Shown: positions 1 through 47,846 of the stretch, piece after piece
How positions within the stretch are numbered: position 1 is the first letter of the stretch
Layout of the letters: each line of letters opens with the position of its first letter
From: Chrysomallon squamiferum
Lineage: Eukaryota > Animalia > Mollusca
Length of the DNA stretch: 64,000 bases
Assembly (NCBI GenBank): GCA_012295275.1
Contig: CM022672.1
Coordinates: 28,768,001 to 28,832,000, forward strand
Direction: 5' to 3'
Translations under genes and position numbers: made by a program
The notes under the pieces: model-generated
What the model was told of the DNA's origin: nothing
The model's input: the letters and a program-made list of their open reading frames with translations, nothing else
Databases searched by the model: none

Positions 1-834
1 AACTTCCAAGAAGAATAAATATTCTTAATACAGAAATGAAAGCAGGAATAGATTAAAACTCCGAACTTTGTTGACTAGCATAAATACATATTCAATGTTT
101 GGAAGTGGGAAATAATTTTATTATACTTTTTATACCAGTTCTAAGGACAGAACATTTTTTATTTGTCAACATTCTGTTTCTTTCATTCTTTTGAAAAATG
201 ATAAGTTGATTAATAGAAATTTATTTTTTGAAGCCTAATGACATCTTATGTTTAATCATTTCATTAGTATTTTAATGTACTTGAATATTTTAAGTTTACA
301 AGAAAGAAATCAAATATTACAAACTATATTTTATTTTACATACACATCATTTTGATTGCATTTGTGAATGACAGCATAAATGTGAAACTGATATATTAAC
401 TTTTTCAGTGAATCTTCCTTATAACTTCTTTATTTTTTATTCTTTTATTTTTTTTTTACATCAATTCTAGATATCTCTACGATAGTTTGTTACATATGTG
501 TTTGTATTAATTCAGAGTTCACATTCATTGTTCTTTGGATAAAGTTTATTCTTTTATTATTTTTGTGTTTTGTGAATTTGATTTTTTTCTGATTCCTCCC
601 AACCCTGTAAACAAGTATTCAAAAAAAAAAAAAAAAAAAAAAAGTAAAAAAAAAAGTGTTTGGTTTATGGGCTTTTTCATTATATTACTTTATAAAATTA
701 ATAAATCACTAAATGTCAGGTGAACTGTGGATATGTTTAGAATATATTATAAACATAAGAGAATGGATTCAGCTGAAGTGCTGAATAGTGTCACCTGCAA
801 CCTGACTACCACACTGGCATATTTTCCTTTTCAG

Positions 835-1069
835 GTCAGCTATTCAGAGGATTTCAGACACCATTGTTTCATCATCCCAACACATTTGTCATGAGTGTGG
901 TAAATGTTTCACCACTCGGGGGAATCTTATGAGACACGCCCAAAGTGTGCATGAACAAGTCACTTTTACCTGTCCAGGCTGTAGACGAAAGTTCAACCAG
1001 AAGAGCAATTTAATGCGACACTTAAAATTTAACTGCAGAGTTATAAAATCTTTATCAGAAAAAATATAG
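835..1069 (+). CDS. Alternative terminal exon P1: C2H2 + C2HC zinc-finger pair (missed by ORF track)
   Basis: Acceptor ttttccttttcAG ends 834. Frame from 836 reads SAIQRISDTIVSSSQHICHECGKCFTTRGNLMRHAQSVHEQVTFTCPGCRRKFNQKSNLMRHLKFNC...KI*, TAG 1067-1069. Phase 2, no upstream ATG. Confidence 0.88.
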
Positions 1070-2898
1070 TTTGCAAATAGTCAAATGAAAAAACATTTTC
1101 CATTAGTAGCAATGATGAAAAGTAACTGATACTGACTGCAGTTGTATTTCTGGTGGTTTGGGTGTTTGTTTAAATCTTTCTATTGGAATGTTTTTCTGTT
1201 TATGCAGACCCTGATATTTCTGTGCAGTAAGATCAGGTTAAAATAGAAATTATATTATTTATTCATTACTATCTAGAAGGTAATTTAAAAAACATAATTA
1301 AAAAAACATCCATGCATAATAAACACGCAAGAAGAACTTATGTTTTGAAATATTTGCAACAGAACTACTTTAAAAAAACAATAAAAAAACAAAAACAAAC
1401 ACACACACTTTTATTATTTATTTTTAATTAATTATTGTTACTGTTATTGTTATTATTTTTAATGTTTCAAAAGATCAATTTTGGGAGTATTTTAATTGTA
1501 TTTTTATGCATTTTTATAAAGACATCAAGCCTATTTGTTTCATAGTTACTGGAACTGGTATTAAAAACTGTATCGGTCACATTTAGCTATAGAACTGTAG
1601 ATCATAACCATCCAGCAACTGTTACATATTTTACACTGCTGTTGTTTTAACAACTTCTTAACATTTTATGGAATTTGTCCCTTTGTAAAGAGATGATATT
1701 TACATGTTTGATGCCAAATGTTAACACTGCAGTCTATTCTGTTTGACAGATATCATTATTTTTTTTTTTGTGTTAATTTTAAATGTGTTATGTAATGACA
1801 TAATGTAATTTATTAAAATAATCTTTAGGTGAAGTACAGAAATCAGTGAAAATTAAGATAAAGTTTCAGGAAAGGCTCATTAATAAAGTCTGATAAAGTA
1901 ATCTTAATAATGTTAGTTCAAAATGAACTGAATCATTGGGGGAGAAACCTCAAACTTAGAAATAATTTTAAATGGTTGATTTGATATAACCAACTTTCAC
2001 AATGAAATGTTTTGTCACAGTTATTTCTTTGTGTAAGATGATCTTTTACATCTCTGTAGAAACAAAATAGGAAATACAAACGTACCTGAAATAATCAAGT
2101 GAAATCAAGAACCTGTGCAGATTTAAGTATTAACATTTTTTAATATTTTTCACTGATTTAACCTCATTACACCATTTTTAGGTCACCTTTTTTTTTTCAG
2201 TTTAGGATTAAGTGATAAGTTATTTGGAATATAATCTTCCAGCCAAGATTAATTTCTAATAAAGTTTTAATCTTTGAAACTTACTATTATGTACTAGAAG
2301 ACAGACATGGATATAAAATAAAGAATGGTTTGAATATTTGTGACGCTAACAGCTAATAATGAGTCACCATATCTGTGCATTAAAACTCTTCTTCTTCCTT
2401 TAAAACAACTGCAGTAAATTAGAGTACTTCAAATTTAAATAAATAAATAAATAATAATAAACATAATAATAAATTTCTTTTCCATGATACTAGTTCATGA
2501 AAGAATTAAAGATTATTAATATTTGTATTTTCAGACTGTTTGATTGGTAAAGATATAGTTATCATTATTTTACATGCAGTCATTGGCAGTTGTCTCATCA
2601 TACATACTTGGTTAATGATGCAAATTATTATTATCTTTTTTTTTTTCGAAAATTGTATTTTGTAATAATCATGAATGTTTATTATTTGGTTTCATTATTT
2701 TAACTAAATATTGTAATCACAGTTTAAAAGCCATGTTAAATAATAAAAATATTCAGATGGTTATTGTTATCATTATATTGATTTTATTTTTTGAATCAAT
2801 TTTAATAATTTTTAAAAACATTGTTACCATTGTTTTCTGAAGCACATTTTTCATATCCTTTTGATATCCACCAACCTGCTACTTGTTTACAATTTCAG

Positions 2899-3154
2899 AT
2901 CTCACAGAAACTTCAGAAAAAGTAAGGATTCTAGTAATGGCTGTGTGGGTAACAAGACTTTGCATCACACTTGCTACATTTGTGGCAAATATTTTGCTAA
3001 ACGTTTTTGTTTGCTGAGGCACATACAGAGTCTTCATGATAGAGTGTGCTTTGACTGTCCAGCTTGTGGAAAAAAATTTAATCAAAAGAGCAACTTCATG
3101 AGACATTTCAAAATGTCATGCAAACATGTTGTCAAGATTGGTGAAAAATCATAA
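2899..3154 (+). CDS. Alternative terminal exon P2: C2H2 + C2HC zinc-finger pair
   Basis: Acceptor aatttcAG ends 2898, phase 2. CYICGKYFAKRFCLLRHIQSLH and CPACGKKFNQKSNFMRHFKMSC. Confidence 0.88.
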
Positions 3155-4599
3155 TCACAAGTCAATCCTAATAGTACTGTGTGGAATAATTGTAAAGACT
3201 GTCTTGTTGGTCTCAAGATGAGGTTCAAATATTGATATAATTTGTATCATTTCATATTGATTAATCCAAAATGGAATGGATGTTGGACTGAACTACAACT
3301 ATAAAATTGGAATATTTTAATTTTAATTTTTATTTGTTATATACTCGAATGAAAAACAAAATTGCTACTATTATTATCAGACAGTTATATAGTACTTTGA
3401 ATATTTCAACATTGGTGTCTTGAAGATATTCAATTTTAACTACATCAAAAAAACTGGTAAATGAATCAATCTCTTGTGTGAAACTGGTGTGTCAAAAGTT
3501 TGAGAGTTAAGCAAAGAATAGAGAGAATGTGGACAGCATGTTGATATCAAGTGACATGCAGGTAGATTTGGTACTTGAGTACAAAAGTTGGACTTAGATG
3601 AGGATAAAGTTTATCTTTATTTTAATTTAAAAGAGATTAATTTGCAATCATTCTAATATTGTTGGATCTCACATCTAATAAATGAACAAATTGGAGACAG
3701 AGTATTCACCCAAAAAGTAGATCAGCTTGTAGCTGCAGAATTCATTCACTACAAGAAAGATTGTTTTACATCCACATCCTGAGTTTAGAATTTCTTAAAA
3801 TTACAACTTCTTAATTTTTATATTTTGCAAAATCCATATGTACCTGGCATTTATATTTCTTACATTCCTGTTTAATATCCAATAGGTCAAGCATAACTAA
3901 GTTTTCATGGAATGAAATTTATAATAAAACTATTAAAGTTTTTAAACTTCAGAAGAATATAAATCTGTTCTGTCATTTGGTTACTGCAGTTATTTTATTT
4001 TCAGATAGATTATAATTTTCTGTGTACAAATGTTAATAATTTTTTAGAATATTTTACTGCACTATCATAACTAGTTTAATGTATATTTGAAACAATTTGT
4101 GTCTTACCCAAATTATCATCCATTTACAGACATGATTATCATCTATGTGTAATATTTCTTTGTTTTCTAAACCAGTGAGTGAACACTGGAAAAGATTTTC
4201 AACCAATTCACTTTTTCTTTTTGAGTATGTTAGCTTTAAAAACTCTGAGAACATTACATGTTTTTCTGTATGCTTATTTCACTTTCATCAAAAACTTTAA
4301 ATGTTGTGAATATATTTATGCTGAAAAATGTATGATGACATCTTTCTTTGCAACAATTTTTATGAATTCTTCTTATTGGAAATTAATAACTTTAGTTAGG
4401 AATGGACACATTTGAATTTTCATATATCCCCAAAAATATTGCCTTACTTTGAAAGGTGGTAATGAATTTTTTAAGCTACAGAAAGAAAAAGGCATATACA
4501 AGCTGCAAAAAGCTGTTGTTATTGTTTTCATATATCAGGAAAATGAAAAAGAATCCAGTATGATGTCAAAACCAACAAAGTAATTCTTTCCTATTTCAG

Positions 4600-4834
4600 A
4601 TTCCATGGGGACAGCAACTTGAAGTTGTCAGATAGTAGCAGGACCATGGAACATGTTTGCAATGTTTGTGGGAAAGCTTTTGCCACAAGTGGCACTTTGA
4701 AAAGACACAAGCAGAGTTTACATGAAAACTTGTCATTTGTGTGTCCTGGTTGTGGAAAAGACTTTAATCAAAGAAGCAACTTCATGAGACATTTAAAAAT
4801 ATATTGTAAATATGTTGATAAATTGTCACATTAA
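4600..4834 (+). CDS. Alternative terminal exon P3: C2H2 + C2HC zinc-finger pair
   Basis: Acceptor ttctttcctatttcAG ends 4599, phase 2. CNVCGKAFATSGTLKRHKQSLH and CPGCGKDFNQRSNFMRHLKIYC. Confidence 0.88.
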
Positions 4835-4900
4835 TCAGTTTGCTTGTTTTTAACTGATTTGATGATCCTTTCCAACAGAGTGATTCCTTTGCTGTTTCAG

Positions 4901-5168
4901 GTTTCATTGGACAAGAGGACATTCTAGCTTGTTGGGTCACAACAAGATCTTCAAGCATTATTGTAATGTGTGTGGCAGAGGTTTCTCTACAAGAGGCAAC
5001 GTACAAAGACATAAACAGAGCATTCATGAAAAATTACAGTTTGCTTGTCCAGACTGTGGTAAAATTTTCAACCAGAAAAGTAACTTCATGACACATACTA
5101 GAATACATTGCAAAAAAAGGATGAAGAAACAACTTGATGCATCTATTGCAGATGGAACTAACCATTGA
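4901..5168 (+). CDS. Alternative terminal exon P4: zinc-finger pair
   Basis: Acceptor ttcctttgctgtttcAG ends 4900, phase 2. CNVCGRGFSTRGNVQRHKQSIH and CPDCGKIFNQKSNFMTHTRIHC. AATAAA at 5182. Confidence 0.88.
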
Positions 5169-6468
5169 TTTTCATTGCATCAATAAAATACACTGAAGAG
5201 GATTTACTGGAAAACAATACAAGGAAAATGTATTCACATGGTATACATTGAATTAACTGAGCCATATTGGAAGTGCTACATTGAAAATACTTTTGTGTTT
5301 TCATTATTTAAAGGATTACAGCTTCTGAAAATGATAATCTTTCAGTAAATGGTTTGGATAAATAAGATTTTATAACCTTTTTCTATTGAAAGCCAACAGA
5401 TTTATGTTGCTGCATTAATTTTCTAGAATGTTCAAATACGTACTTGTTATTTTACAGTTTTTAGCTGAACAGTGAGATGATGGGGATGGCTTTTATTGTT
5501 TTTAAGAAAACTGTATCAGCCACCTGCTACAAAACTATAATCTTTCCCTTTTGACTGCTAAAATGTTAGGTTCTCAAGAGGTTTTTTTTAAATGTTTGAT
5601 TAATACATCTCCAGAAACTGAGAACAAACCTGATTTTGTTACATTGTGTATTGTTTTCTTTGATTTGTTTTTGTTTTTTTTTGCTAAAAAGTAAGTTACT
5701 ATTATTTAAAACAGTTTAACTATGAATACACTGGGCTCTGAATTAACCTTCAGATTGCATTGCATTGGTTAAATTTAGTTTAGTACAATCTAATTTCATT
5801 CAAGTCAAAAATTGGAACATTAAAAATGGTTTTACTTAATGATCTTCTGTTTTGCTTTTAATAATATCTTCAATGTTTGTTTCACATAATTCCTAACAGA
5901 TCAATCTAAAACTGAATGTTACTTGATAAAAAAGTATATTTCATTCATCTAGGAGTGTCAGATTAATAGCAGTTGGGTTAAAATAAAGTCAGTTGCATGA
6001 AAACTTTCAATAGAAAATTTCTCTGTATTGAGTCATTTATTGCTGTTGTCACCTTTCTTAATTAGTTAAATTAACTTAATTTTTAATGTTATAAACAACA
6101 GCACAATCTATTATTACAATGAAATAAAAGGGTGAAAAATTATCTGTTTATTTATAAATTGTTCAAACTGAAAGCTAGGAATATATTTTTTTATTACCAA
6201 CAGTATATCTTTTCTTCCATTAAATTATCTTTTTATTCTTTCTTTACAAAAGAAAATTATAATTTGTTGCTGTATTAAATGAATACTAGCAAGTTATAAT
6301 GTGACACTTTGATAAATTAATCCTGGAAAACCTTATGATGAAACATTTTGTAGGAAATAAGGAATATGTATATTTACATACGTGCAGTCATCTCTGTTAA
6401 TTATTTTATTTTTTTTAAGATGGTATTTTCTTCTATCCAAACCAACTGGCAGTTCCTTTCCTTTTCAG

Positions 6469-6724
6469 ATCACATGATAGGAGAAGTGAGAATAGCAATC
6501 CAGCTGAAAGCAGTTTTGGTTGGAGAAGATTTAAACACACTTGCAAAGTTTGTGGCAAACATTTTTCTACTAGAGGCAGTTTGCTCCGGCACGATCAGAG
6601 TATCCACAGAAATATTTTTTACTCTTGCCCAGGTTGTGGAAAACAGTTTAATGAGAGAAGCAACTTCATGAGACATGTCAAACAGTACTGTAAATCAGAT
6701 GTATACTCACAGACTCCAAAATAG
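6469..6724 (+). CDS. Alternative terminal exon P5: C2H2 + C2HC zinc-finger pair (missed by ORF track)
   Basis: Acceptor ttcctttccttttcAG ends 6468. Frame from 6470 reads SHDRRSENSNPAESSFGWRRFKHTCKVCGKHFSTRGSLLRHDQSIHRNIFYSCPGCGKQFNERSNFMRHVKQYC...PK*, TAG 6722-6724. Phase 2. Confidence 0.88.
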
Positions 6725-7478
6725 AGTAAACAGCTCCATACTTATTTAAAATATAGCAATAAGATGATTAATCAAAGTATCTTACCTGTAACATATCAAA
6801 ATTTTAAATGGAATTTTTACTTGGCCAAAGAGATAGATGCAACAGTTCTGCAGTCTGCAATAAAAAATAATGCCAAAACAGGAAAAAACATCCCACCAGT
6901 GTTCATCATATTCTGTTTGGTGATTAAAACACATTTCACATATCTGCATTTGTCATGATTCTGTAATTTGTGATGCATTTTACAATGTTTTCACAGCTAA
7001 GTTTATGTAATGTAGCATCATGTAGCTTGTCTAGGTTCAGCTGTGACATATTTATAGACATGTTCTTTCAAATGCATGAGCTGTTATATAAAATATTTGT
7101 TTTCCTGTTTATAAAATTAAATATTACTTCTTTCAAAAATGTGTTGTTGTTTCTATGTGTAAGTCATATGCCAGATATATTTAATTAAAAATGAAAGCTA
7201 TATTGTGTATAATCACTGACATATATAGTCACACTTGCATGAAGATATTACGGTCCTATATGCTTGAATTGTGGATGTAAAGAATATATATAAATATGGG
7301 CACCAATCTGTAATCTGTATGAATATGCAAATAATTGTCTACATGCATGCACATGCACACACAGACACAAAAATTACTGAACTGAAGAAATTGACACTGT
7401 TGATTTCTGGTTTTATTTCATCTTGTAATAGCCGACTAAGAGGGAGATAATTACACCTATGTATTGCTTTGTTTTCAG

Positions 7479-7731
7479 GCCATCACGAACATCTTCAGCA
7501 AGGTATCTGTCAAAACTGACACATGCTGATGGTTCTACAGCTGTGTATAAATGTCATCTGTGTGAAAAACAGTACTCAGAGAAAAGAAATCTTTGGAGAC
7601 ACAATCGATTTGTTCATGAGAAGGTCAAGAAATATGTGTGCAGTTTGTGTGGCCAGAGATTCATGCAGAAATGTCACTTAACTAGTCATCTCAATAGTAA
7701 ACTGGTGCATGCTGGATTCCACAACTCATAG
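7479..7731 (+). CDS. Alternative terminal exon P6: C2H2 zinc-finger pair
   Basis: Acceptor ctttgttttcAG ends 7478, phase 2. CHLCEKQYSEKRNLWRHNRFVH and CSLCGQRFMQKCHLTSHLNSKLVH. Confidence 0.87.
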
Positions 7732-8456
7732 CTCCAGAATATTGGTGCTTACTAGATACCTCAGCATTGTCAACTTAGAAAAATACATGTTCTGCTAATA
7801 CTGAAGTTATAGTAACACTAACAGAACTAATTTGTGCTGATTTGTCATTTTGTATATCTGTATTTTCAAAATGTCTTGTGTTTTTCTTTTTTTCTTTTTT
7901 TACATCACCAGTAGCATTTGCTTTAGAAACTGATGTTATTACATTTTTAAATTTACATTTTAGTATAAAAGGGTAAAAAACTGAGTGTGTGTATATATAT
8001 ATATATTTTATTCTTTTTAATTATTATAACGAGAGATGAATGTTCAACCAATTATACATTATGTTCATAGTTGTGTTCCATATATTTTGTTTTTGTATCA
8101 TCAAAAAATTAATTTAAAACATAAACATTTAACAAATGATTACAAAATTTACTAATCTGTGCTGTCAAAAATAAACAGTGAAAGACCCAGTGATGTCAGC
8201 TCAGTATTGTTGTGATAGTGCAGTTACAAGTTTAAGATGATGTATGACAGTACATGCCTGAACTAACAATACAGTTGTATTTGAATACAGATTTTTAATA
8301 CAAATGTTAAACAGAGTTACATAACTGATTTAAAAATAAAAAAAGAATGTTGTTAAATCCATATATTCTGTGTATTTCTTAGAGTTTTTCTTCATTATTG
8401 GATATGACACTGTGCCTGTATTTGAGCAACAAAGGAATTTATCCTTTTACTTTCAG

Positions 8457-8673
8457 AGTGTCCACACGACTTGACAAAGAACTGGCTGGTACTAAACAGT
8501 ATGTTTGTTCTCAGTGCAGCAAAGTGTTCACTCTTCATCACAATCTGCTACGACATCAGAGAAGTGTACACAGACAGGGATTCAACTTCAGCTGTGCATT
8601 TTGTGGCAAACTGTTCTTTAGAAAGGACCATTTGAACTTGCATCTGAAAGGAAAACACAACATCACAAATTAA
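8457..8673 (+). CDS. Alternative terminal exon P7: C2H2 zinc-finger pair
   Basis: Acceptor ccttttactttcAG ends 8456, phase 2. CSQCSKVFTLHHNLLRHQRSVH and CAFCGKLFFRKDHLNLHLKGKH. Confidence 0.87.
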
Positions 8674-10534
8674 CAGTGTTAATTGAATAGTTAACATTCA
8701 ATGAGGGGATCAGATTAACCATTTCACAGCTAAGAACTGAACTGAGTTAATCAGATATTTTACTGCCTATGTTTTATAAACAATACAAGGATATAATGAG
8801 GATGGTATAAATAATGACTTTTAGGTCTGTATATTTCAAGGTAAACAATAAAGATGATTACAGAAAATACTAGTTACATTTAAACAAGGGCTTCCATATC
8901 ATATTTGGACTTTTAGGTCAGATCAATTGACATCATTCTACAGGGTAGAACAGATCTATAATCTGCTCATTGCTGGGCAACAGGCCTTCACTGAATAACT
9001 GACATGAATTTGAAGCAAACAGTGATACAGATTTTATCTACTCTGAGTCATGTTCGTTATCAAAATAATTTATTATTTCAAAGCTGTTCTGTTTGTCAGA
9101 AAAATCAGATATTTCAATAAAGTTTTCAGCATCTCCCATAATTATTGTAACCTTTGAAACTCATTCTTTCTTAAAGATTTTAAAGTTGGAAAATGTTTCC
9201 TTCTTTAAATTAATTGCAACTGCTTAAATTTAAATTCGATATTTAATTCTTATACACAGATAAATATATCAAAAACATTCAGTGACTGCAGAATATTAAT
9301 ATATTTTGTGTTGGAGATGGAAATTACACTGAAAAGGTGAAATATTTCCCACTGGTTGGTAGTTCATTTGTCATCAATGTTTCACCACTTTGTATTTATA
9401 AAGTAAGAATAAATCATTTTTAAGTATTAAGATCCAGGGGTATAAGTTAAACTCACAGCATGTTACTTCTGTGGACAATGGAAAAATTGTGAAAAAAAAG
9501 GAAATAATGAAAAAAAAAATAATCTCAGAATTTTCTAAATCATTTAAAAAGACTGAAAATAATAACTTGTTTAATTTTTTTTTAAAGAATAAAAAATCAA
9601 GTTTTGTTATGACTGACAATTTTTTTTTTTTTTTTTTTTTTAATTTTTATTAAATATATTTCTCAAATCTTTTATAACTTGTCTCTTGTTTAGATGCATT
9701 ACTTTCTTTTTATTTATTGGATTCCAAATGGACAGTGATTTACAGTTCTTCATATAAATAATTAGAATAAAGAAAAAAACAAAAAGTTCCAAACAAACTT
9801 GCCACACTGTCATAACATATGGTTTTTTTTATTATTATTATCTTATTTTATATATGTTTTCTAATTCACACATAAAGATTACAATTAAAATAAAATTTTG
9901 TTTTACAAGGTAGGTTTTGGCAAGCAAAATATAATAATGTATATAATAAAAGTGATATATTGAGGCTTTCTCCATAAAATTAAGTTTTATTACCATCACT
10001 ATTTTTCATTTTCAAATTTTTACTTAATAATTCATCATATAATTTTACAGAATAAGGGAAAGAACAAAACAAAGAACTTCATAGTTGTAAGATGGAGTAT
10101 ATATTTGGTTCCTTGGTTTTTAAAGTTAAGAAGCATTTTAAAATAGTTTACTTCTGAGAAATTGAAATGACTGCCACTGAGGCTTATATCCAAAGACCCT
10201 TCAAACATCAAAAAATGTCCAATTTTTTCTCATCATCTTCAAGATATTTATTAAACAAGTACTTTAGGCCTTGGACTATAATACCTCACACAGGCTATGA
10301 GAATAATTTGAACTGCCAAAAGTTGATTAACCAACTTGAATAGAAAACTTTCAGTGTTGAAGCTCAGATGTCAAGTTTCTCTCCACATCACAGCCATCAT
10401 CTCATCAGTGTGTTTGCATTGTATTAACACTTAATGCTTCTCATTTTAAAACTGGTGGAGAGTCTTTGTTCATACCATTTTAAATACATCTGTAACTGCT
10501 TATAATTTGCTAGATTTCTAGTAAGCACTATGGT

Positions 10535-10830
10535 GATCACTAATGCTAAGAAGAATGCAGATAATATTTACAAGAGTTTTTGAAATTTGAATTCATACCT
10601 TCCATTTGCTAATGAAGCAATCCTATGTGCTTCTTATGCGAAAAGACTTTAAGTAATGAATCATGAAACCTGCTAAATGAAAGACCACCTCAAAAAGATT
10701 CACTTTGCTAAGTAACGGAAAGATCTTAGTTTAATAAAAAAAAAAATGCTGAATGAAAAAAAAAGAAGGGAAATCTGGCAAATGTTAAAAGTAAATACAC
10801 AGCTATCAGTTCATTGACAACTATGACTGA
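10535..10830 (+). mobile_element. Decayed hAT (Buster/Charlie-like) transposase 5' fragment with BED finger
   Basis: Frameshifted hand translation gives ...EFLKFEFIP...PMCFLCEKTLSNES.KPAK.KDHLKKIH, matching the Buster/ZBED5-type BED motif C..C...LSNESMKP.KL..HL...H. Boundaries approximate. Confidence 0.6.
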
Positions 10831-12032
10831 GAGGGTGTTGAGTATGGACTGGCTGTATCTCGGCTGGTTGGTTCATTGGGAAAAATTATGAGCTTTGGTA
10901 CTGAGCTTAGCCACAACACAGATTTTCATTATGTACTTTAAAACAAAGCAACAGCTAAGCTAAAATGTTTTAAAATGTTATAAAGACTACATTGCTAATG
11001 ATGAATAATATAGTTAATACTTTATTAAGTATTTTAAAAAAATAGAGCATATGAGGAAAGAACATTTAAATCAATTCATTTATGCGAAAACAGGTATTAC
11101 ACTGGTCCATTATGTTTTGATTCCAACGAATGATAAATTATTGTAGCTGTGTTATCATCATGTTTCACTAAAGTTCAAATAGCATATAAAATAAATAGAC
11201 AAATGAAAAAGAAAAAAAACCCACTTTGGAGAATTATGTTATAGGTCTTGCACTGACTAATGGTACCTGAAACCTCTTGGAACTAAATGTGGCAATTTGC
11301 AAACAAGCTGCAAAACTTCATCATACTCAACTTCTTGTGTTTATCTTGATGATGACTATGAAGAATCAGAGAAAGTGTTTTCAGATTTTTTGAAAAATAG
11401 AATCACATACAACAACCTTTTTACCCTGCCTTTAAGAATGGATCAGCACTGCATAATATGACCCAAATGTTTGAAAATATATCTTGAAATGGTTGACAAT
11501 CATAGCACTGCAATATGAAATGCTCCATTCTTTGTTAGCAAAGAAATGTAATCTTAGTTCATACTTTCCACATAATGTTGATACTGTGTGAGCTTAAATT
11601 ACATAATTCACATCAATGGTGTCAAGTCTCTTATCGGTTATTCACACAAAAATTCATATTTTGGCTCCTAGGTGTCACTTTCATACCTGAATAATACATT
11701 CATAGCATCTAGGACAGACTGTTACGAGATAATTGTCCTGAGACAGCTTGCTGTCAGCTATTTTGAATTTATGCAGATTAGTAGTGTGATATTCAGAGAT
11801 AGAAAGTGTCATAAAAATTTCTAATGTAATTTTTTCTAGGTTACTTATAATCCTACTGGCCTCTCTCTCTCTCTCTCTCTTTCTCACACACACACACACA
11901 GACATTTTTTTGTTTGTTTTTGTTTTAATAAGGTTACAAGTTAGACTGATTAATAGTCTTACAGAATAAAAATCATTTAAAACAATTACTGGAAGCAACA
12001 AAAAGCAACTTTACATTCAACAAACATTATAC

Positions 12033-12033
<1 letters not shown>

Positions 12034-12073
<40 letters not shown>
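12034..12073. repeat. (TG)n microsatellite
   Basis: About 20 perfect TG units; a (CT)n/(CA)n run lies nearby at about 11860-11900. Confidence 0.95.
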
Positions 12074-12074
<1 letters not shown>

Positions 12075-12678
12075 CAGGCAATTTGTCCTTCCACTATGAC
12101 TTACTTTTCTGTAACTGGAAATAAATGATTTTACTTTAGTTTTTGGGCGTACAGGTGTTCAGCTTGTATATGTTAAGTTGAGTATATAACATTTTAATTT
12201 AAAATCACTTTCCATATTCATTCTTACCACAGTTGTTAGCAAATATGTAAATTAATCATTTTCAGATGTTTATATTTTGTTGAGAAATAGTTGATTAAAT
12301 AATTTGTAAACATAAACAGTATGTCTCTGGATGATTATTTTTATTTTCAGATTTTAAAAAAGGGTGCGTAGCATTCTTGTGATGAAATAAATTTCTTTAC
12401 AAGAAAAAAGTAACAGTTTAAAAAAAGAAATCATTCCTTTGGTCTCTCTGTGTAAGTCATCATATTTGTTTTTTTCTCTCTCTCACTTTTTTATTATTTA
12501 TTTAAATGCTAAAAACAAAGCAAGATCCATTACAACATTTTTTTTTTTTGAATCGATGATGCATTTACAGCAAACTTGATTGTGCCATTGGATGCATTTG
12601 CATATTCATTAATAATGTTTTGAAAATAGTCCAGTTGGAGTCTGTGTTGTTAATATGAGACAACTGTTCTGTTTTCAG

Positions 12679-12907
12679 GAGACCTAATAGAAGAGCTGTG
12701 AAATCAGCATTAAGGAACATGTCACATTTAAGTTTGCACATTTGTCCTACATGTGGCAAATCATTCACACAGCGTGGCACAATGAAGCGCCACCATCAAA
12801 GTGTGCACCAGAAAGTGGCAAGATTCCAGTGTCCATTCTGCAACAGGAAGTTTTCCAGAAACGATCACCTTGGTCAGCACATGGTCTACTGCAAACGGAA
12901 ACTTTGA
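12679..12907 (+). CDS. Alternative terminal exon P8: C2H2 + C2HC zinc-finger pair
   Basis: Acceptor gttctgttttcAG ends 12678, phase 2. CPTCGKSFTQRGTMKRHHQSVH and CPFCNRKFSRNDHLGQHMVYC. Confidence 0.88.
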
Positions 12908-15783
12908 ATGTATCTGTTAACTAATACATTAAGTTCTTGGATAACTAACTAAAGTTTTCTATGTGTTCAGCCACAGAACAATAAACTGAATCCATATTTA
13001 GATAATTATATAACCAGTTTCAGACAATGACATAAGAAAAAAAATAACAGGAACAAAAAAAAATATGTTTTCAAAGATTTGTCATCATAATAAATATGTT
13101 TAAAGAAAAGTGTTTGTGTGTAGGTAATTATATTGCTATTAAAAAAAGACAAAAATAAAATTTAAATTAAAGAACAGTTGAAAAATTAACAGAAAACGAT
13201 GCAGTGAAATACATGTAATACTGTACTTTTACTCTGGCTTAGAAGATGCTAATAAAAGTCAGCTTTAATTTGAAATATTCAAAAGTCATCAACATTCTGT
13301 TTTAAAGTGTAAAATACTGTATATATAAACACTCAGTAAAATATTTTCAAAAACACTGAATTAAAGAAATGTCATTGGAATTACAAAGTACCTTACATCA
13401 GTCAATAGGGGTATTTTCTCTGAATTATTAAAACTAGTATTTTAATATAGGTGTAATAGCATTGGTTATTAATTAGGCTGGTGGCTTGAAGAAGTTGTAA
13501 ATTTGCACAGGAATTTGTTAGAAATATATTTATCTGGTGGTGTTATACTATAATTATAAATAATTATAATTTTCTTTTTTTAATGTAATAAAATAGATTA
13601 ATATGTTAATAACTGATTGTTGAAAGTTAAACATTAATATACTTGAGATTTGTTCCCATTGTTGCAAGGAATATTATAAATGCATCTTTCCAGCAGAATA
13701 AGGAAAATATATATAAAATCTAGTGAATGCATGAACTAAGAGCAGATCACACACATGAAAATCACACATATTATTAATGCTTAAATAAAATAAAACCATA
13801 TTACCATTTAGAATCATTCTTTGAGTGCAGATTTTATGCTGAAAGGAAACTGATATAAATTTTATTACTTCAGATTTTCAGAGTCTGTCCATGTTGGAAC
13901 ATCACATGTATTAGCTGTGTAGACCAACATTATTCTTCAGAATCACAATGTACAGCATATACCAGCATAGGAATAGATTCTCATGTGAGATGTGTTCTTT
14001 CATTCCTAGAAGAAACAAAACAAAAGCAAAACCATTTTCATTCTATATTTTTATCATATATTCATAGTTGACTTTGAGGATTCTTTTTTAATTATGTAGT
14101 AGGATTTTTATTATTATTATTACTGCTCGTGTGATAAAGTTACAAAAACATTTCAGTTGCTGTTCTGATTTCATACTGTTACAATGAAGGAGTTTTCAGT
14201 TCTTAATATGACATCTACTTGATGTCAGTGGTTTTGAAAAAAGTAATGGAAAAAGTAGTGTATTTCAATACTGTTACCTATATTAGATTTTATACATATG
14301 ATATTGTATTTTCCTACAGTTGGTTTGTTGTACAATGCTCTCTGAATTCTGTTATCGCTTGCTATTCCAGTTTACATAATCTAATTGCAGTTATTCTGAT
14401 TGGTGTAACACTGTAATATCTAAGTAAAACACTGCAGTGTTTTCAAATCACACCCACCCAACAAAAAGCCCAATTGATGTCAAATATTCCTTCTCCTCAC
14501 TGACTACAAGTGTGTTCCAGTGTTTGTGAGGGCCTGCTTCTGATCATCCTGCACATCATACATACAAGAAATTTTTGTCAAACTTTGAACTGATTTACTG
14601 ATAATTTTAGGTGTTTCATGTATGCACTTTGGCATTTTGAGGTAAGACTGAGGCAGTTAATTTTAACAATTGATACAGCAGTCAGTTTTGTCCTGTCAGT
14701 ACTAACCCACACAAGTCTGGTGTGTTGTCAGCATTAGTCAGGTCAACACAGTTATCACAGTATTTGAAACCAGGATTTTCCTTTCAGTGTCCCACCAAAT
14801 ACTTTTTATCCCTAGTGAAGCATACACAGAATTTCATAAGATTCTTTAATGGGATATTTCAATCAGTCTTCTGCCATTAGCTTAAGGCTCTGATAATACT
14901 TACCAGAAAAGAAATGAGTTCCTGATGATGCAGTGAGAACACACCATTTTGGGCACAAAGCTGAGAATGAAGAAAATCCATTCTTCTTTTCAGGATAGGA
15001 TTCGTTTCAAAAAGAATAAATCTCCTTGAGATTCAGTAATATGAACCACTTGTGATGTTTTCACTATTCTCATTATGAATATTCTCAGAATCCTTCATTT
15101 CAGAACTACTTTCATTAAAACTAATAATGTCATTTTTTTCTGATAAAACCTATCTGGTTCTTATCACATTATCCTAATATACCCTTCTGCTTTTTTTTTT
15201 TGATACAGTGTTATTTTTCACCAAAAGGTTTGTGGCACCAAATTTTTCATAATCCCATCTTTCTTCTAATATCACAACACAGGTAGTGTTAAACAAGATA
15301 TTAAAACTATGATACATTTTCCTACCACATTATAGTGTATTTTGTACATTAATGCACATTAATTAGCGAGGTTAATATTTTAGATTTTGACTAGTTATAA
15401 CAAGAACACATTATACACAACTGAAGATGGGAAGGTTATACCCACTGAATGATTTTATGTGGAATATCCCTATAGTTTGTGCAAATAATGTCATAAACTT
15501 CCTGTATAAGTACACTGTGAAACAAGGTGATGTGTACTTTAGATATATATTACTTTAGTATATAAATAGCCTGCAGATACTGCTAATAGTTTCGTGCTAT
15601 TAAATTGATATATAAATAATCTTTTGATATTAAACTAATATATACATATATTGTGTACAATTTTCCATTTACAATCATATATAAACAAATATATAATAGT
15701 TTCTATACACTGACTTGATAGTTAGCATTCAGATATTGATGTGTAAACAGTTCTGTGATTTTAAGTCCTATTTTGTATTTCAG

Positions 15784-16012
15784 AATGTGCTGTGCTATCT
15801 CTAAACAACACGATTCAACAACTTGCATTTACAAATGTCCAGAATGTCAGCGTCCATTTGGTTTCAACCATTCTCTTTTGCGACACATTCGCTGTGTGCA
15901 TCAGCGAATAAAAAACTTTCCCTGTAACAAGTGTGGAAAACGATTTACTCGAAGTGATGTTCTCAACAAACACATGGGCACTTGTACTCAGACATTTCAT
16001 AGCTCTAACTGA
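15784..16012 (+). CDS. Alternative terminal exon P9: C2H2 + C2HC zinc-finger pair
   Basis: Acceptor ttttgtatttcAG ends 15783, phase 2. CPECQRPFGFNHSLLRHIRCVH and CNKCGKRFTRSDVLNKHMGTC. Confidence 0.88.
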
Positions 16013-17692
16013 TTTCTAGCTGAGGAAATGATAATAATTACAATCATCTAGCAGAATGTGAAAAATAGTGATAAAAAAAAAGAGTTTAAAATGTGACTGT
16101 TTTAGGAAAGATTAAATACACCAGAAGAAAGCATGTCCATATACTATTGAAAGCAGTGTCTGGTTAAAGTATTAGACCATTACAAAGATGTTAAACAGAG
16201 TTGTTACATTCAGACACTGTGGTAAAGTGTGAAAATCAAAATAAGAGATTTATTTGTTATCTATCTAGATTCAAAAACATTCAAAACAGAAATATTTAAT
16301 TCTAAAATATTTCATATTACTTCAATTCTGTTCCTTGCTTTACTTTGTTTTTGTAAATGATGAAGATAACTGTTCGTGTGGCAGAACTGTCTTTTGTATG
16401 AGCAGAACACCTCTGAAGATATCTTACCTGGGAAAATAATAATCAAGACAATGTATTAATAACTAAACACACATACACACATATACACACACATACACAT
16501 ATAAACACATACACACATGCACATATACACACACATACACACAAACACACATTTGACCTGATGTACGTATAATCCTAGCCTGTTGTTACTTTTGGAGTAG
16601 CTGTTTTCTAGGCAATAAATTGTAGCCCTTTGATGTGATGTTTTTTCCATTTAGGAATGTGTGTAAGAAAAAACAATTTACCAAATACCTGACAGCTATG
16701 TTTTACATTTCTGATATTAAACAATCCAATATTAATAATAAACAATCCAAGACATTAATAATTGTTTAGAGTTCATTGTAATCTTTAGAAAATATTAATT
16801 GTTATTATTGTGAAAAATATGTCTTTACTAAATCCTCTTTTTATTATTTATGTGTTCATTATAGAAATATACAACATATTACTATTGTGACAAGCCAGTA
16901 TTGGTACAGGGTGGTGAATAATGTGGTGCATAGCATGAAGGTCAAAGTTGGAAAAAGATTTTGTCCCAAATTTTCTTTGAAATGACATAGTATTTATCAT
17001 TACAATAGAAAAAATCGGTAATGAATTTAGCAACCTTTTTTTCATCCATGGCCTTCTAGGCAAAGACACAGAATAGGGCCTCAACATACACAAGCACAAA
17101 AAGTTACTGACAGCAATCCACAACATATATAATAAACTGCATGGGACCCTAGTTGAACAGACAATTCAGTAAATGCTGAATCATAAAATGGTGTGATTAA
17201 TATATAATGATACCAAATATTTGCTAGTTTTTTCATCAACAGATATATATATATATATAGTTGTGATGTTAAATTTGTTGATTTTATCTTGGAGGATTTT
17301 TCTGCTGTCTATAAAATTCAGGATATGTTATTCTGTTAGATGTGTTTATTTATTTATTATATCTTTTTCATTTTATTTATTTATTTATTTTTATTATTTT
17401 TTTTTTTTTTTTTTTTTTCAATTTTAGCTTATAATTGAAAATGTATAATTCACAAATATTTATCTAATACTGACAAATTCCACTCTTATGATAAATGAAT
17501 TTCTGTTCTGTGCTATTTTTTAATTGATATTATGGTATAAGTATTTATAATCATCATTATATCATTTCAAGATAATCCAGACAAAATGCCACAGCTAAAT
17601 AATATATTATTAGCAGCATGTATAAGGGACTTATGTGTTTTGTTTATTTCAATAATAATTAAAGTATTATTTTCATTCTTTTTTCTTTTCAG

Positions 17693-18008
17693 GACACTTC
17701 AAAAAAGATTAAGGCAAATAAATAAAATTAATAAGGGAAGTAAGAATTTTCATCCATTTTCTTGTTTTGTTTGTTCCAAATTGTTCACCTACCGCTCAGC
17801 TTTAGTACGTCATCAGCGCACCCTGCATCAACAACAGAAGAAAAGATTTCTGTGCACTTTCTGTGAGGCATCATTCAGTCGTCAAGACAACCTCACTCAG
17901 CATGCTAAAATACACAGACCATGCAGTCACTGTGGCAAAATATCACTCAGCAGTGAAGAGTGGAAAAAACATTTAAAGGAGCATTTTCAATTACAAAAAC
18001 AAATTTAA
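17693..18008 (+). CDS. Alternative terminal exon P10 (last of + array): three C2H2 fingers
   Basis: Acceptor ttcttttttcttttcAG ends 17692, phase 2. CFVC..HQRTLH, CTFC..HAKIH, CSHC..HLKEH. AATAAA overlaps the stop (18007-18012). Confidence 0.87.
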
Positions 18009-18276
18009 TAAACTGTACTAGCTTTCAGAATTAAAAAACAATTATGTTTTAAATGATTGCTATTGCTTTTTTCTGAATATTGATGAGATTGAAACCAAAT
18101 ATTTCCCAGTAATTCAGGAGCTGCATAAGAATTAATGGGGCTGAACAACTTCTGGCATTTGCTTATCCAATCCAAATTTAAAGGTGAACATCTCAACAAT
18201 GTTAAAGTGCATTTAGCTGATCAGGACACAGATACAGGAAGCAGCATTCTTTTATTTTTATAAAATTAGCTCAGTA

Positions 18277-18640
18277 GTGTTAACAAAAGAGAAAGACAAG
18301 CTAGTTTATAAAGAATATACTAATATTGAAAGTGAATGTTTTTATCAGAAAAATCATGTGATAAAGAGGAAAAGTTGGCCAAAACTTGTAGATATGGAAA
18401 ATGACAAAATGAATAATTTTCAGATGGTTGTGCCAGAAATTATTGACAGGACATTCTGAGTTTGAGTCACAAAGGTTTGTTTGAGGGTAATGTAGGATGT
18501 ATGAATAGGCTTATATTGCATGGGTTTTTTTATTGACTGGGCATATATACTGACACAAATATGCTAACTAAATATCAAGTGGCAGGTAAGCCCAATCAGG
18601 TAATTCCTCCAGCACCTATGAAATTAATTCCAAATACATT
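18277..18640 (+). mobile_element. Gypsy LTR-retrotransposon pol relic (integrase zinc-binding region)
   Basis: Fragments QMVVPE...LSLSH... and YQVAGKPNQVIPPAPMKLIP match the Gypsy integrase motif CQ.VGKPNQ.IPPAPL.PIP; interrupted by stops/frameshifts. Confidence 0.72.
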
Positions 18641-19064
18641 TTGTGGAGGTCTTGAAACAAATCTGGATGTAAAGATCCTCAATCAAGTACCACTTTATTT
18701 GGATGTCAGTATGATGAGGTCTCTGGTGTGCATTCTTCGATGCCAAATCTTTACTTTTTCAGTGGAAAATACTAATAGGTTTACAGCCAGCTGCTGAATT
18801 TCACCAGACTGCTGTGATGTTCTGGCTTCATGTGTAGTCAGTGCAATATTTCATCTTTTCAATATGTACAGAACAGGACGTAGTTTGTCAGGTTCATCCT
18901 CCTCCATCTCTTAACTGTGGCAGAAGTGGACAGATGTTGTAATTGTTGTTATGACTGTATTTATATGTATGTTTTACTTAAATGTGTAAATAAAATTTCT
19001 TATTTGATGTAATTTTGATTTCTCTTATTTGACTTTAAAATAAGCTGCTTTCGTATTTAATATA

Positions 19065-19291
19065 CAGGGTGTCCCAGAAGTCACGCACCATGAAGATTTT
19101 TATTTAGATACATATGAATAAAATTTTTATTAATAATAATCATAACAAATGCTCAAATTGCTTGCCCTCTGCATTGATACATACTTCAATTCTCTTTATA
19201 AAACTGTTTTTTACTCTGTTGAGGGTTTCGCTACTAATTTATGTGTATCTAAATAAAAATCTTCATGGTGCGTGACTTCTGGGACACCCTG
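19065..19291. mobile_element. Tc1/mariner-superfamily MITE, 227 bp
   Basis: 48-bp perfect terminal inverted repeats starting CAGGGTGTCCCAGAAGTCACGCACC, flanked by TA on both sides. Interior (- strand) encodes transposase C-terminus LNRVKNSFIKRIEVCINAEGKQFEHLL*. Confidence 0.92.
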
Positions 19292-22200
19292 TATATATCA
19301 ATGAATATCCTGAAAAAAAACCAAACCCCCCAAAAAACCTGGAACTGGTGGCCAAATGCCTACGTTTTTTTAACTTTTGGTTGAGCAACTTGTACACTGG
19401 GTGAATCAATGTTTGGATTCAGGGGTAGGCATGAAATTTGTAACATAACTGCACAAATAAAACCATCAAACATACATCTCTCTGTCTGTTATGTATGAAT
19501 GTTTGATATGAGGGCATCATAATGTAATCAGTTTTTGTGTTTGATAGTAAATAAGTTATGATTAAATAAATAAAAACCACACACATATACACACTCTGTG
19601 TTTGCATATGAATCTAGAAGAATCATGTTTATGTGGGTGGGTAAAAGGAAATAACTATCCACATACCATAGTATGAAACTAAATAAATAATAATGAAGCT
19701 AAAAAAATCCATTTTTGGATGGACTATCACTCTGTGTGCTTCAGTATGAATGTAGAAGAATCCATGTTAGGGTGGAGCCAATCTGGAAAGAATCAATTTG
19801 TATGTATCACAGAATGAAAATAATTTTGCATGATGGTAGGAAACTGAAACAAATAATAAATAAAAACACACTCTACTTGGTATGAAGAATCTATGAATGG
19901 ATTGACAGGCAAATATGACTCCTATTATGAAAACATGATCAAGCAAACACCTCATAGAAGGAAAGAGAAAGGGATTCTCATTACACTTGCATGACACAAG
20001 AGAGTGTTGAGTAGATCAAATTGTAATGAACCGGTTGCAGTGTTTTGTTGTTGTTTTCCACTGGTTGATGCTCCGGGATTTGTGCAGTTCGTTCAATTTG
20101 TGGTTTTCATCACCAGGTTCGTGAAGGTCGGTCCTATCTGCTGTTCAGTTCTTGGGTGCTCTTGACATTTTCATCTCCTTGCTGGCTCTTTCTTTATCAT
20201 TCAACAATTCCCAATATTTATTTATTTCTTTTCTTTTTTTGCCAATGGTCTTTTTATTGGTTTAAAAAATATTAATAACATCAGTAATTAAAACAGTAAT
20301 AGTCAATTTGTGCTGAACATATTTTCAAATGTTGACAAAATTTCATTTGACCTATATTAGGTTGTTTAATTTTTATTTCCTCTTTTTGAAGCCTACAAGT
20401 TTAGTTGTGCACAATAACCCATGCTCTTTATATGTGCTCTTACAAGTAAAAGTGGAAGAATGTATGTGTGGATGAGAGGGGCTAAAATGGAATCATGGAT
20501 AAAGAAGCATGGATGAAATGTGTTTATAAGAATGCACATACAAATAGAAACCTGTCAATAAACATACAGTCTCTGTCGCCGTGCTTGGATATTAATGTGG
20601 AAAAATCTGTGGTTTCTGTACCCAAGCACACAGTATGAAAGAAATCAGTTGGTACGTATGTGTGCTTGGTGTGAATGTGCTACAGTCTATGTTTGGATGG
20701 CTTGGTTGTCACAGTGCCAGTGCCTAAAATGCTCAATACAATTGGTAAATTTTAAATTGTGACAGTAAAACATATATCCACTAGATAAACAACATAAACA
20801 AGAGTGCAGTTCGAGTTATTTATTTATATGCAAAATAGAGTTTGTAATAATATAATATAAAAAAAATAAACACAACTAAATTATTTATGGTTTTGTGGAA
20901 ACCTGACTTAAAATACGGAATCAACTGAATCCCAATTAGACAGAATCGGTTACAGAGAAACAAGTATATAAGTTTTACATATATATTAATTAAACAAATA
21001 TGACATTAATGACACAGATTACACTGCCTAATGATGGTATAAAAAACAAAAACACAAAAAAAACAAAGGGAGAAATGTATTTTACCATATCCCTCTGCCA
21101 AATGCTTATCAAAGAAAGACCAAAGTCCCATGACTCAAACCGCCATGATGTACAACCACCTGCTTGTCACTTCTTCTTTGAGACCCAGAACTTGAAGCTG
21201 GTTGAAAACTGCAGGATCAAAGAAGAAGGCAAAGCGACATGTGCAAACAAATTTCAAAACTTTATTACTTTGTCACACAAACCTTGCCCTGTCATGGACT
21301 CTAATTAATGCAAGTTTGAAATTTAAAAACTGACTTCACAAGTTCCTGTAGAATGGTATTACAAATTGTAAAACAAAACTAATTATTTGCACATACCGGC
21401 AGATAAAGATAGTTTATTTACTGATTATGATTATTAATACATTAATTATAATTAGTTGTTATTTTGTTCTTTTCTTTATTTCAATACAGACACTCACAAG
21501 ATTATATACATATAAAAATGAGTACTCTAATAAAATATCTATAGTATATAGAAAAGAAATGTATCTAATGAAATCGGGTTTTATGTAGAACAAAGTCGTG
21601 ATTATCTATCTTCCTCAGAGTGGTATGGATGATTTCATAAATGATCATATGAAAAGAAACCGTCAGTAAACTGAGCTCGTCCTCGAGTATTAATGTGGAA
21701 TAACCCGTATTTCTTTTAATCAGTTAAATTTTGTTTAATATTTATTTAAACTTCCAGCAATGCTTATGCTTCAAAGAAATGGGAGAAATATATATTTAGT
21801 TGTTCAGTGGTGTATTGTTAAACTATTATGTAACCTCTTTTGGTCTGGAAAAACTGATGATCGAGAAAGACTTTGGAAAATTGGTAATGTACTTCACACA
21901 CACATCAGATGTTTTAAATATTTTTTTATACATTTGTTTCTTAGAAAGAAATTATGACACAAAAGACTTTTATATTTTATTTATTTCTCTTACAACTACT
22001 TTAAATTTATAAACTGTAAAACATGTATATGAAAACAGTTAAAGGAAAGTTTGTTTATTCCGATTTACTAAAACAAAATAGTTATGTTGGTTAAACCGTT
22101 TGAACTTCAGTAATTGAAAAATTTTATACTACATTCACTGCCAAATATCCTAAACATATTTATAAAATATCCTAAATTTATATTTGTATTTTATATATCA

Positions 22201-22448
22201 CATACATTATTTAAACAAATTATTGTTTTGATTCATATAACTTCAATTAAAAGTACCAAATGTGGTAATGTCATTTTTATTTTGAAAAATTAACTTCAAA
22301 TACACTTAATGACAGAGAAATATATTCTAATTTTGTTTAGTGATGTACAAAAGCTTAATGTATTAAAATAAACAATTATTTGGCACATATGTAGTATATA
22401 TATACATATATAGAATGCTGCAACATTGTTTTATTTTATTTATTATTA

Positions 22449-24752: not shown

Positions 24753-24803
<51 letters not shown>
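24753..24803. repeat. (AAT)n microsatellite
   Basis: Direct tandem AAT run; a poly-A run of about 32 nt lies at 25142-25173. Confidence 0.9.
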
Positions 24804-24804
<1 letters not shown>

Positions 24805-25141
24805 TAAACTGCATGAGGTACAATTATTGCATTCTGTTCGTTTTCCCTCACATCTCATGAACATCAGTATTAAATATGATTATAATTTATATTTTGTTCT
24901 AAACTGAAGAATGAGAATTATTATTTTTTTTTTACATTTCTGCAGTACCTGATGAATGCTGGATTGGTGAGAGAGGATCTAGCGAAAAAGAAATAACTAG
25001 TTATCTGTCCGCCATTTGCCTTTTCAATAGCCACATAGAGTGATGAGCCCTGCAGTCTATCAGTAAAAGAAAATTAATTTTTTGTATCAATACCATAAAT
25101 ACAGATCAGCTTCTTTCCTTTAGAAAACAGTTTATTTGAAG

Positions 25142-46538: not shown

Positions 46539-46861
46539 CTGTAAAGAGCTCAAATCAGAAGATGATGTGTTTACTGATGCAAACTGCTGATTTTCACCAC
46601 CACTACCATCCTCAGTATTTGACTTGGTGTCAAAACTGTCTATAAACAAAATGTCATCAGCCTCTTCTTTGATGTGTATATTATCAGGCAGACATAACCT
46701 TTCTGTACTAGTCTGTGATGTGGATGTGTCTGTAATTTCAGAATGTGACAAGGTTTCATTCCCCTGATGAACTGCTCTGTCACTGAGATAATTTCCTTCA
46801 GCCACAGAAACAATGTTTGTTGCAGCAGAAAATAAAGACTCCATTTCATTATCAGTTTTTT
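46539..46861 (-). CDS. Constant coding exon 2 (acidic/Ser-rich linker) ending in the common phase-0 donor
   Basis: Acceptor ttttgtttttcAG; joins the previous exon in frame (phase 1: ...PNKK-E-KTDNEMESLF). Contains IKEE (SUMO consensus). Donor CAG|GTACAG at 46539/46538, phase 0. Confidence 0.8.
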
Positions 46862-47122
46862 CTGAAAAACAAAATTTTTACTACCAAAATAATGCTATAA
46901 TAAAAAGCTTCAATATTTTCAGAATAAATTACTTAGAGAAATATTTGTTACAGTGTCTGCTTTAAAGATATGCTACATTTCACAGAGTATTAATATGTCC
47001 ATAAAGTAATGATAAAAAGTAAACAGTCCTTGTATTTTTTTAATACTAGGTGCATATTTTTGCTTTGAGTGCGGATGTATACATGAGAGAAATGCATGCA
47101 TTATTACTAGCACTATACAAAC

Positions 47123-47846
47123 CTTTCTTATTTGGAGCTGTTTCTTCTTGTACTGAACGTTTTCGACCTCTGTTATCTTCTGAGACAGTATCTGATGATG
47201 ATGTTATATGTTTTACATCTGACCCATCAAGATTTTCTGCATCAGCATCATTCACTGATGGAATAATAGCCATTACTGGACTGTTATGAGCTGCACTTGT
47301 TAAATACTGCACAGATTGTCGAGGTTGGATTGTTGTTGGTTGTTGCTGGAATGATGAGGTGGGTAATGAGTTTGTGTCAGGTCCACCAGCTGCAAAGGAT
47401 GATAAATTATTTCTTCTATTCTGTCTGAAAGACTGCTTGTACTGAGATGATGCCTCAAGAGAATGTAGTTTTTGCCTTGCTGATGACAGCTGATATGGAA
47501 TATTATTTGGTTGTGATTGTTCAGAACTCTCTCTCAGATGAATTGATGTTTCCTGGACTGTTCTTTGTGTATTTGTGTTATCTCTGAGCACTATATCAGA
47601 ATTATTTCTAACAGGTAATCGTTTCATAGTTTTGAAGGCTTTTACACAGTAACTCTCACTGATGACATCACCAGTGTTGTGAACCATCTCACTCAGAACA
47701 TAGCGTTCTTTTTTGTAATTGTCTATTTCTAAAGAAAGGTAACCACTCAATTCCACTGCCTGATCAAACTCTATATAGTCTCGACAGAATTTTTGCATTG
47801 CTTCCACAAACCTGGTGAAGAACTGGACAGAATACTGTTTATCCAT
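47123..47846 (-). CDS. Constant coding exon 1: N-terminal globular domain (~75 aa) plus low-complexity region and putative NLS
   Basis: Acceptor ttctcttctttttaaAG with exon start 47871; caaaATGG start at 47846. MDKQYSVQFFTRFVEAMQKFCRDYIEFDQAVELSGYLSLEIDNYKKERYVLSEMV... Donor AAG|GTTTGT at 47123/47122 (phase 1), 261-nt intron. RGRKR...KK basic cluster. Confidence 0.85.

Follow-up and report, generated by a model that had tools for sequence, protein, structure and literature searches.

The stretch of DNA considered here, referred to as the window, comprises 64,000 nucleotides of the mollusc Chrysomallon squamiferum (GenBank assembly GCA_012295275.1, contig CM022672.1, positions 28,768,001 to 28,832,000, forward strand); all coordinates are counted from its first letter. 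The window is AT-rich (24-33% G+C in 2-kb bins), and a six-frame scan found in it 21 open frames encoding zinc fingers of the C2H2 type, ten on the plus strand, spanning positions 806-18008, and eleven on the minus strand, spanning 27088-63999. The subject of this analysis is the plus-strand array (835-18008), whose ten units are very probably alternative 3' coding exons of a single gene, with the constant part outside the window. The evidence comes from the anatomy of the units, from splice joints in RNA, and from comparison with one gene of the snail Gigantopelta aegis, LOC121382587.

Numbered from left to right, the ten variable exons run from acceptor to stop at 835..1069, 2899..3154, 4600..4834, 4901..5168, 6469..6724, 7479..7731, 8457..8673, 12679..12907, 15784..16012 and 17693..18008, as delimited by a frame scan. 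In each unit the preceding intron ends in TTTCAG and the frame opens at the second exon base, continuing for 71-104 codons to a stop. An earlier note, made from the letters alone, had described ten TTTCAG acceptors, each followed by one base before the frame and by a stop of its own, and the frame check found this to be correct in 10 of 10 units. The same note had remarked that exons 1 and 5 (835-1069 and 6469-6724) cannot be seen in a list of open reading frames (ORFs); both are indeed missing from the default list, which requires a start codon and at least 60 amino acids. Every one of the ten exons begins with a purine. Exons 3 and 4 are separated by a gap of 66 nucleotides, in which neither AATAAA nor ATTAAA is present. 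The layout is that of a lola-type locus: in 10 of 10 cases the tandem exons of this strand bring an acceptor, a DNA-binding module and a stop of their own, and the splice phase is common to all.

The six-frame pattern scan gave two finger matches in each of the ten exons. Finger 1 has the form C-x2-C-x12-H-x4-H and finger 2 is mostly C2HC, and the zinc ligands C18, C21, H34, H39, C46, C49 and H62 are unvarying over the ten exons. A Pfam scan, which took in exons 1, 6 and 10, placed all three in the C2H2 zinc finger family PF00096 with the ligands present, at 47.9, 32.1 and 47.6 bits, respectively (gathering cut-off 25.2). Exon 10, the last unit of the array, has a third finger that is visible by Pfam only (three stretches).

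TTTCAG occurs 68 times on the plus strand of the 64 kb, i.e. about once per kb, and with this frequency the presence of ten in-phase copies just 5' of ten finger modules cannot be ascribed to chance: an in-phase copy in the short stretch that separates the first cysteine from the stop before it would be expected in a few percent of units and was observed in 10 of 10. In the minus-strand finger exons with a scorable acceptor, the phase is 0 in 10 of 10 and TTTCAG is used in none, and therefore both the phase and the hexamer are particular to the plus-strand array. The 100 nucleotides upstream of the ten acceptors have in common only a pyrimidine tract, the hexamer itself and a likely CCAAC-like branch point; no docking-type element was found in them. 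The proportion of nonsynonymous differences (pN) is lower than that of synonymous differences (pS) in all 45 pairs of the ten exons, with synonymous sites mostly saturated, which points to selection.

The RNA data are assembled contigs of four runs (X1 to X4) of one study, which were compared with positions 1-9590 of the window, i.e. with exons 1-7; apart from these four, one other run contains this stretch. In run X3, an identical tag of 28 nucleotides stands directly 5' of position 835 and of position 4901, so that two of the seven exons examined, exons 1 and 4, are joined in RNA to one and the same upstream exon. No 14-mer of the tag is found in the window, whichever strand is searched, and the metagenome contigs contain no exact match to it. 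Translated by hand, it reads G-I-S-W-E-S-S-N followed by a split Q codon, and because it ends in two codon bases (CA), it must come from a phase-2 donor; as had been predicted, this donor lies outside the window. Since CA is always followed by a purine, whichever of the ten exons is chosen, a Q codon is expected at the joint in every isoform.

Further joints, all of the GT..AG type and on the plus strand, connect the units with one another. They are 5240>6469 (run X1), 5344>6469 (run X4), 6725>7479 (runs X3 and X4) and 7744>8457 (run X4), and the corresponding GT donors are found at 5241..5242 and 5345..5346 in the 3' untranslated region (UTR) of exon 4, at 6726..6727 after the stop of exon 5, and at 7745..7746 after the stop of exon 6. 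A third donor of exon 4 may be placed at 5351/5352, where a joint 5351>6469 would fit a 12-letter loose end seen before 6468 in run X2 and placed at 5339. In addition, a weak joint of depth 2 in run X3 (3453>4599, with three letters between) can be read as 3456>4600 once an A-run is lengthened by one letter, and 3457..3458 is then the likely 3' UTR donor of exon 2. The splice donors thus lie 1, 13, 72, 176 and about 300 nucleotides past the stops, each joined to the acceptor of the next finger exon, and 3' UTR donors link one finger exon to the next. Of the seven acceptors within 1-9590, six are used: those of exons 1 and 4, preceded by the tag; that of exon 5 (6469; runs X1, X2 and X4); those of exons 6 and 7 (7479 and 8457) in the runs given above; and, weakly, that of exon 3 (4600). 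These chain joints imply one continuous plus-strand transcript over several units, and consequently the exons are not always terminal. The chaining may serve regulation or the sharing of poly(A) sites, or it may be noise.

It should be noted that, with used donors as close as 1 nucleotide (exon 5) and 13 nucleotides (exon 6) past the stop, a later finger exon can become part of the 3' UTR that belongs to an exon before it. Separately, contigs of three or four of the RNA runs depart from the reference at 8502, 9056, 2802/4033 and 4476, and no splice signal accompanies any of these departures; the one at 8502 falls within exon 7, where the departing sequence keeps the finger frame. These departures could reflect a paralogous copy elsewhere, an allele, or an indel between the sampled animals and the assembly.

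The closest counterpart of the array is LOC121382587 of G. aegis, which has annotated isoforms up to X14. The 13 isoforms examined (P0008, P0190-P0200 and P0235) have 386 residues in common, ending in GTSWDSSNQ, after which they part into short tails, most of which carry two fingers. The peptide encoded by the RNA tag, GISWESSN plus Q, agrees with GTSWDSSNQ at 7 of 9 residues, so that the last constant residues before the joint also speak for orthology. SWDSSNQ is present in 13 of 13 isoforms of LOC121382587 examined and in no other fetched protein that was checked.

As regards the tails, exon 2 is 69% identical to the tail of P0199 (isoform X7) over 83 amino acids, from residue 1; exon 6 is 81% identical to that of P0198 (isoform X4) over 79 amino acids; exon 8 is 70% identical to that of P0197 (isoform X10) over 61 amino acids; and exon 9 is 72-73% identical to that of P0190 (isoform X9) over 52-53 amino acids. 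All four are reciprocal best hits, with alignments that begin right after the joint. They also pair in a maximum-likelihood tree of the tails, with support of 95/99, 100/98, 85/82 and 99/96, respectively; the tree was built without the long five-finger tail P0192 and resolves these four pairs only. Both lines of evidence mark exons 2, 6, 8 and 9 as orthologues of the respective G. aegis tails. Exons 1, 3, 4 and 5 show 43-55% identity to the tail that exon 2 matches at 69%, and are diverged copies of the exon 2 type. A tblastn search with 12 G. aegis tails revealed no additional plus-strand exon in the window, and 9 of the 13 tails examined have no counterpart among its ten exons. Searches against longer proteins gave no match for exon 10 and, for a profile of the ten exons, matches dominated by vertebrate poly-finger proteins, which are uninformative; no locus related to P0008 was found in the metagenome contigs. 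The plus-strand array and LOC121382587 thus have the same plan, i.e. a constant region and alternative short tails, with the joint after ..SW[D/E]SSNQ, and they differ in belonging to separate species whose orthologous tails are 69-81% identical. These comparisons support the view that the array would be the 3' variable part of the orthologue of LOC121382587.

The constant region of LOC121382587 matches the window at a single place, the minus-strand exon 47846-47184 (tblastn, 41% identity), which belongs to a second gene described below, and therefore the constant exons of the plus-strand array lie elsewhere. Most simply, they would be found to the left of the window. This result, along with the failure of the tag to match any part of the window, agrees with the claim of the earlier note that no constant exon for the array is present. 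A further proposal, namely that the missing constant exon is related to the domain encoded at 47846, gains support from orthology: the constant region of LOC121382587 opens with the same N-terminal domain of about 76 amino acids as the minus-strand gene (45% identity over 217 amino acids), and the constant exons of the array would accordingly be expected to encode a paralogue of it.

In the window, sequence searching places this domain (family sequence MDKQYS..SESYCTKAFKT) at 47592-47846 on the minus strand. The ORF beginning at 47846 has 63 relatives among 1.84 billion representatives, all of which share the domain, and the named ones are all molluscs, including the gastropods G. aegis, Haliotis, Pomacea, Batillaria, Babylonia and Plakobranchus and the bivalves Solemya and Sinanodonta. 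In Haliotis, Pomacea and the bivalves, the domain is joined to DUF3504 or ZMYM2-like C-termini in place of fingers. In G. aegis, it heads many genes, all matches listed being on one record of 91,665,651 bases; isoform numbers in this family reach X19-X20, and the tails include C2H2, HTH_psq, BEN and DUF3504.

The exon at 47846 gave no Pfam match at E ≤ 1 and no usable match in the ESM Atlas. An AlphaFold2 model of the N-terminal domain (predicted local distance difference test score, pLDDT, 82.5) shows one helix and four strands; a Foldseek search of the PDB with this model returned nothing at E ≤ 0.001, and a VIA-align comparison of the domain with 48,161 chains reached a best Z of 4.6, without finding a solved relative. 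Nor did the G. aegis orthologues P0008, P0199 and P0198 match any BTB family at E ≤ 0.01, and in the constant region of the orthologue Pfam recognized finger families only. Judged on these orthologues and on the paralogous exon in the window, the scaffold appears to lack the TTK-type BTB domain that would indicate homology with lola or the TTK group.

Taken together, these data make it highly probable that one gene uses the ten plus-strand exons as alternative 3' coding ends. In two cases RNA contigs show the joint to a common upstream exon outside the window, and it is likely that the phase-2 donor of that exon serves all ten. The earlier note had described them as the 3' variable array of a gene with a constant and a variable part, a description which the common tag and the orthology with G. 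aegis uphold; the exons are not strictly terminal, because the 3' UTR donors chain on.

The gene could work as follows. A long primary transcript would read rightwards across the array, and its constant part, predicted to encode about 386 amino acids and to open with the mollusc N-terminal domain, would end in an exon predicted to finish with ..TCTAGTAATCA and then GT. This donor (..AAT CA followed by gt), presumably common to all ten exons, would pair in cis with one among many near-identical TTTCAG acceptors. The chosen exon would supply the third base of the Q codon, a short linker, the two-finger DNA-binding module and the stop. On read-through, the 3' UTR donors, whose joints are observed, would splice to the following acceptors, and the later finger exons would then become untranslated. 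The output would be a set of transcription factors sharing one N-terminal scaffold and differing in their DNA-binding heads.

Several points weigh against this reading. The tag links only two of the ten exons directly, each through a single contig of a single run; for the other five of the seven exons examined there is no tag among the joints listed, and the acceptor of exon 2 (2899) has no joint among them at all. All four RNA runs are from one study, and their support is confined to the stretch 1-9590, i.e. to exons 1-7 and not exons 8-10. The contigs stop within about 30 nucleotides of the branch, so that no molecule spans the distance from the N-terminal domain to a finger exon, and poly(A) sites were not observed. 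Since intergenic DNA, too, has RNA contigs on it (28-29 of 30 bins, with similar depth), coverage is no evidence of expression, and it is the joints that count instead. The identity of the constant region, finally, is taken by orthology from another species, and exons 1, 3, 4, 5, 7 and 10 have no clear orthologue among the 13 G. aegis tails examined.

The observation that the constant exon lies outside the window, at a place and on a strand that the data do not fix, would also fit a different account, in which the variable exons are trans-spliced to constant exons from separate pre-mRNAs, so that the constant part need not be upstream, on the same strand, or near. Arrays on opposite strands converge here at 18-27 kb, as in mod(mdg4), and trans-splicing joins the exons of fly loci of this build, lola and mod(mdg4), according to PMC11426971. 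The chain joints, however, show a continuous plus-strand transcript over several units, and the annotation of the G. aegis orthologue gives plain colinear isoforms, all assigned to a single gene on a single chromosome record. Nothing in the data requires trans-splicing. We therefore regard trans-splicing as unlikely at this locus.

Marginally less likely again is that each unit is a small gene of its own or a decaying duplicate, with only some of the ten being real exons of the gene with many isoforms. The derivation of exons 1, 3, 4 and 5 from the exon 2 type would fit such a history, as would exons 7 and 10, for which no clear orthologue was found, and exons 2 and 8-10, which have no RNA joint at their acceptors (RNA stretch 1-9590). 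Against this, two units have no start codon, and open frame, zinc ligands, acceptor and phase are all kept in 10 of 10 units despite saturated synonymous sites. Moreover, exons 1, 4, 5 and 7, and weakly exon 3, are seen spliced, while exons 8 and 9 have kept 70-73% identity with G. aegis.

It is hardly conceivable that the minus-strand gene (47846..46539) supplies the constant exons for the array, with the plus-strand exons acting as antisense variable exons. They do lie downstream of that gene, farther along than the six variable exons it has itself and in the opposite orientation, as in the layout of mod(mdg4). However, the last constant exon of that gene ends in ..TTA CAG followed by gt, in phase 0, where the plus-strand exons need two bases, and the tag, with no 14-mer match in the window, encodes a peptide unlike the ..SSDLSSLQ of that gene; joining to the constant exons within the window is thus excluded by the phase-0 donor and by the different sequence.

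The ten exons being most probably the alternative ends of one gene, the locus invites comparison with known systems. The Drosophila lola locus combines a BTB domain with alternative 3' zinc-finger exons, giving 20 isoforms, 17 of which have fingers, and TTK-type BTB domains were not found in Mollusca, according to PMC11426971. Like lola, the snail locus appears to have constant 5' exons, for a presumed protein-interaction scaffold, followed by alternative 3' exons, each with a finger pair and a stop, which would provide many specificities per locus. Unlike lola, the snail orthologue has no BTB domain, and its N-terminal domain has neither a Pfam family nor a solved-fold match; finger 1 is C2H2 and finger 2 mostly C2HC, and trans-splicing, as reported for lola, is unlikely here. 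On sequence grounds, the plus-strand locus seems to work like lola but on a different scaffold, and is not a member of the lola family.

Drosophila mod(mdg4) has a BTB domain and at least 30 alternative 3' exons, some of them on the opposite strand and trans-spliced, with FLYWCH tails. The snail locus resembles it in having many alternative 3' exons after a common part, and the window in having arrays on both strands. The tails here are C2H2 and not FLYWCH, though, and no antisense exons on common exons of the same locus were found, as the plus-strand exons are not joined to the minus-strand constant exons in the window. The fruitless, broad and tramtrack genes of the TTK group, which are arthropod-specific, place a few alternative C-terminal finger pairs on one N-terminal BTB domain; they differ from the snail locus in this scaffold and in having far fewer alternatives. 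Clustered protocadherin and UGT1A loci, in which a single constant part is used with any one of a long tandem series of variable exons, are a mirror image, with the variable exons, each with its own promoter, at the 5' side and the constant exons at the 3' side.

A literature search of partial coverage, with supplements excluded, did not find a mollusc locus of this build described, and the available part of the G. aegis genome paper mentions zinc fingers once, for ZFHX4. On balance, we are inclined to think that a system equivalent to lola, mod(mdg4) and TTK-BTB of arthropods arose in molluscs by convergence, on an unrelated, mollusc-specific N-terminal domain without a known fold. It would comprise dozens of clustered genes, each with one scaffold and an array of ten to twenty alternative 3' exons that are conserved one by one. 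These exons would encode pairs or triplets of C2H2 fingers, with psq-HTH and BEN as additional types in G. aegis, and would be daisy-chained by 3' UTR donors.

Loci that combine a scaffold with alternative DNA-binding exons are known from arthropods, where they are tied to TTK-type BTB; the present one is from a mollusc and would have a different, unnamed domain, and the conservation between the two snails extends to individual variable exons. If the proposal is correct, it would represent convergent evolution of isoform-based transcription-factor diversity, and would provide a second independent system for studying how one donor picks among many near-identical acceptors. It would also mean that counts of zinc-finger genes in molluscs understate their repertoire.

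The remainder of the window contains further members of the same family. A second gene, complete and built in the same way, occupies 46539-47846 and 27088-42867 on the minus strand. Its constant exon A (47846..47123) starts with the ATG at 47846 and ends in a phase-1 donor, its constant exon B (46861..46539) ends in CAG followed by gt in phase 0, and beyond it, at 27088-42867, come six alternative exons, each with three fingers and a phase-0 acceptor. Exon A is 63-69% identical to a 'zinc finger protein 37-like' of G. aegis (P0001). The plus-strand array and this minus-strand array are two different genes, arranged tail-to-tail. Five more three-finger exons, again with phase-0 acceptors, are found on the minus strand at 56267-63999, upstream of the start of the minus-strand gene, and the last of them runs off the end of the window; presumably these are exons of yet another family member, whose constant exons would be to the right of the window.

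Between the converging arrays, about 9 kb (18009-27087) are free of finger exons, and none of the long ORFs looked at there matched a family. Long TAT/ATA and GT/CA microsatellites occur at 49700-50500, 51400-51560 and 23400-23500, and appear in stop-to-stop ORFs as poly-Y, poly-L and CVCV runs.

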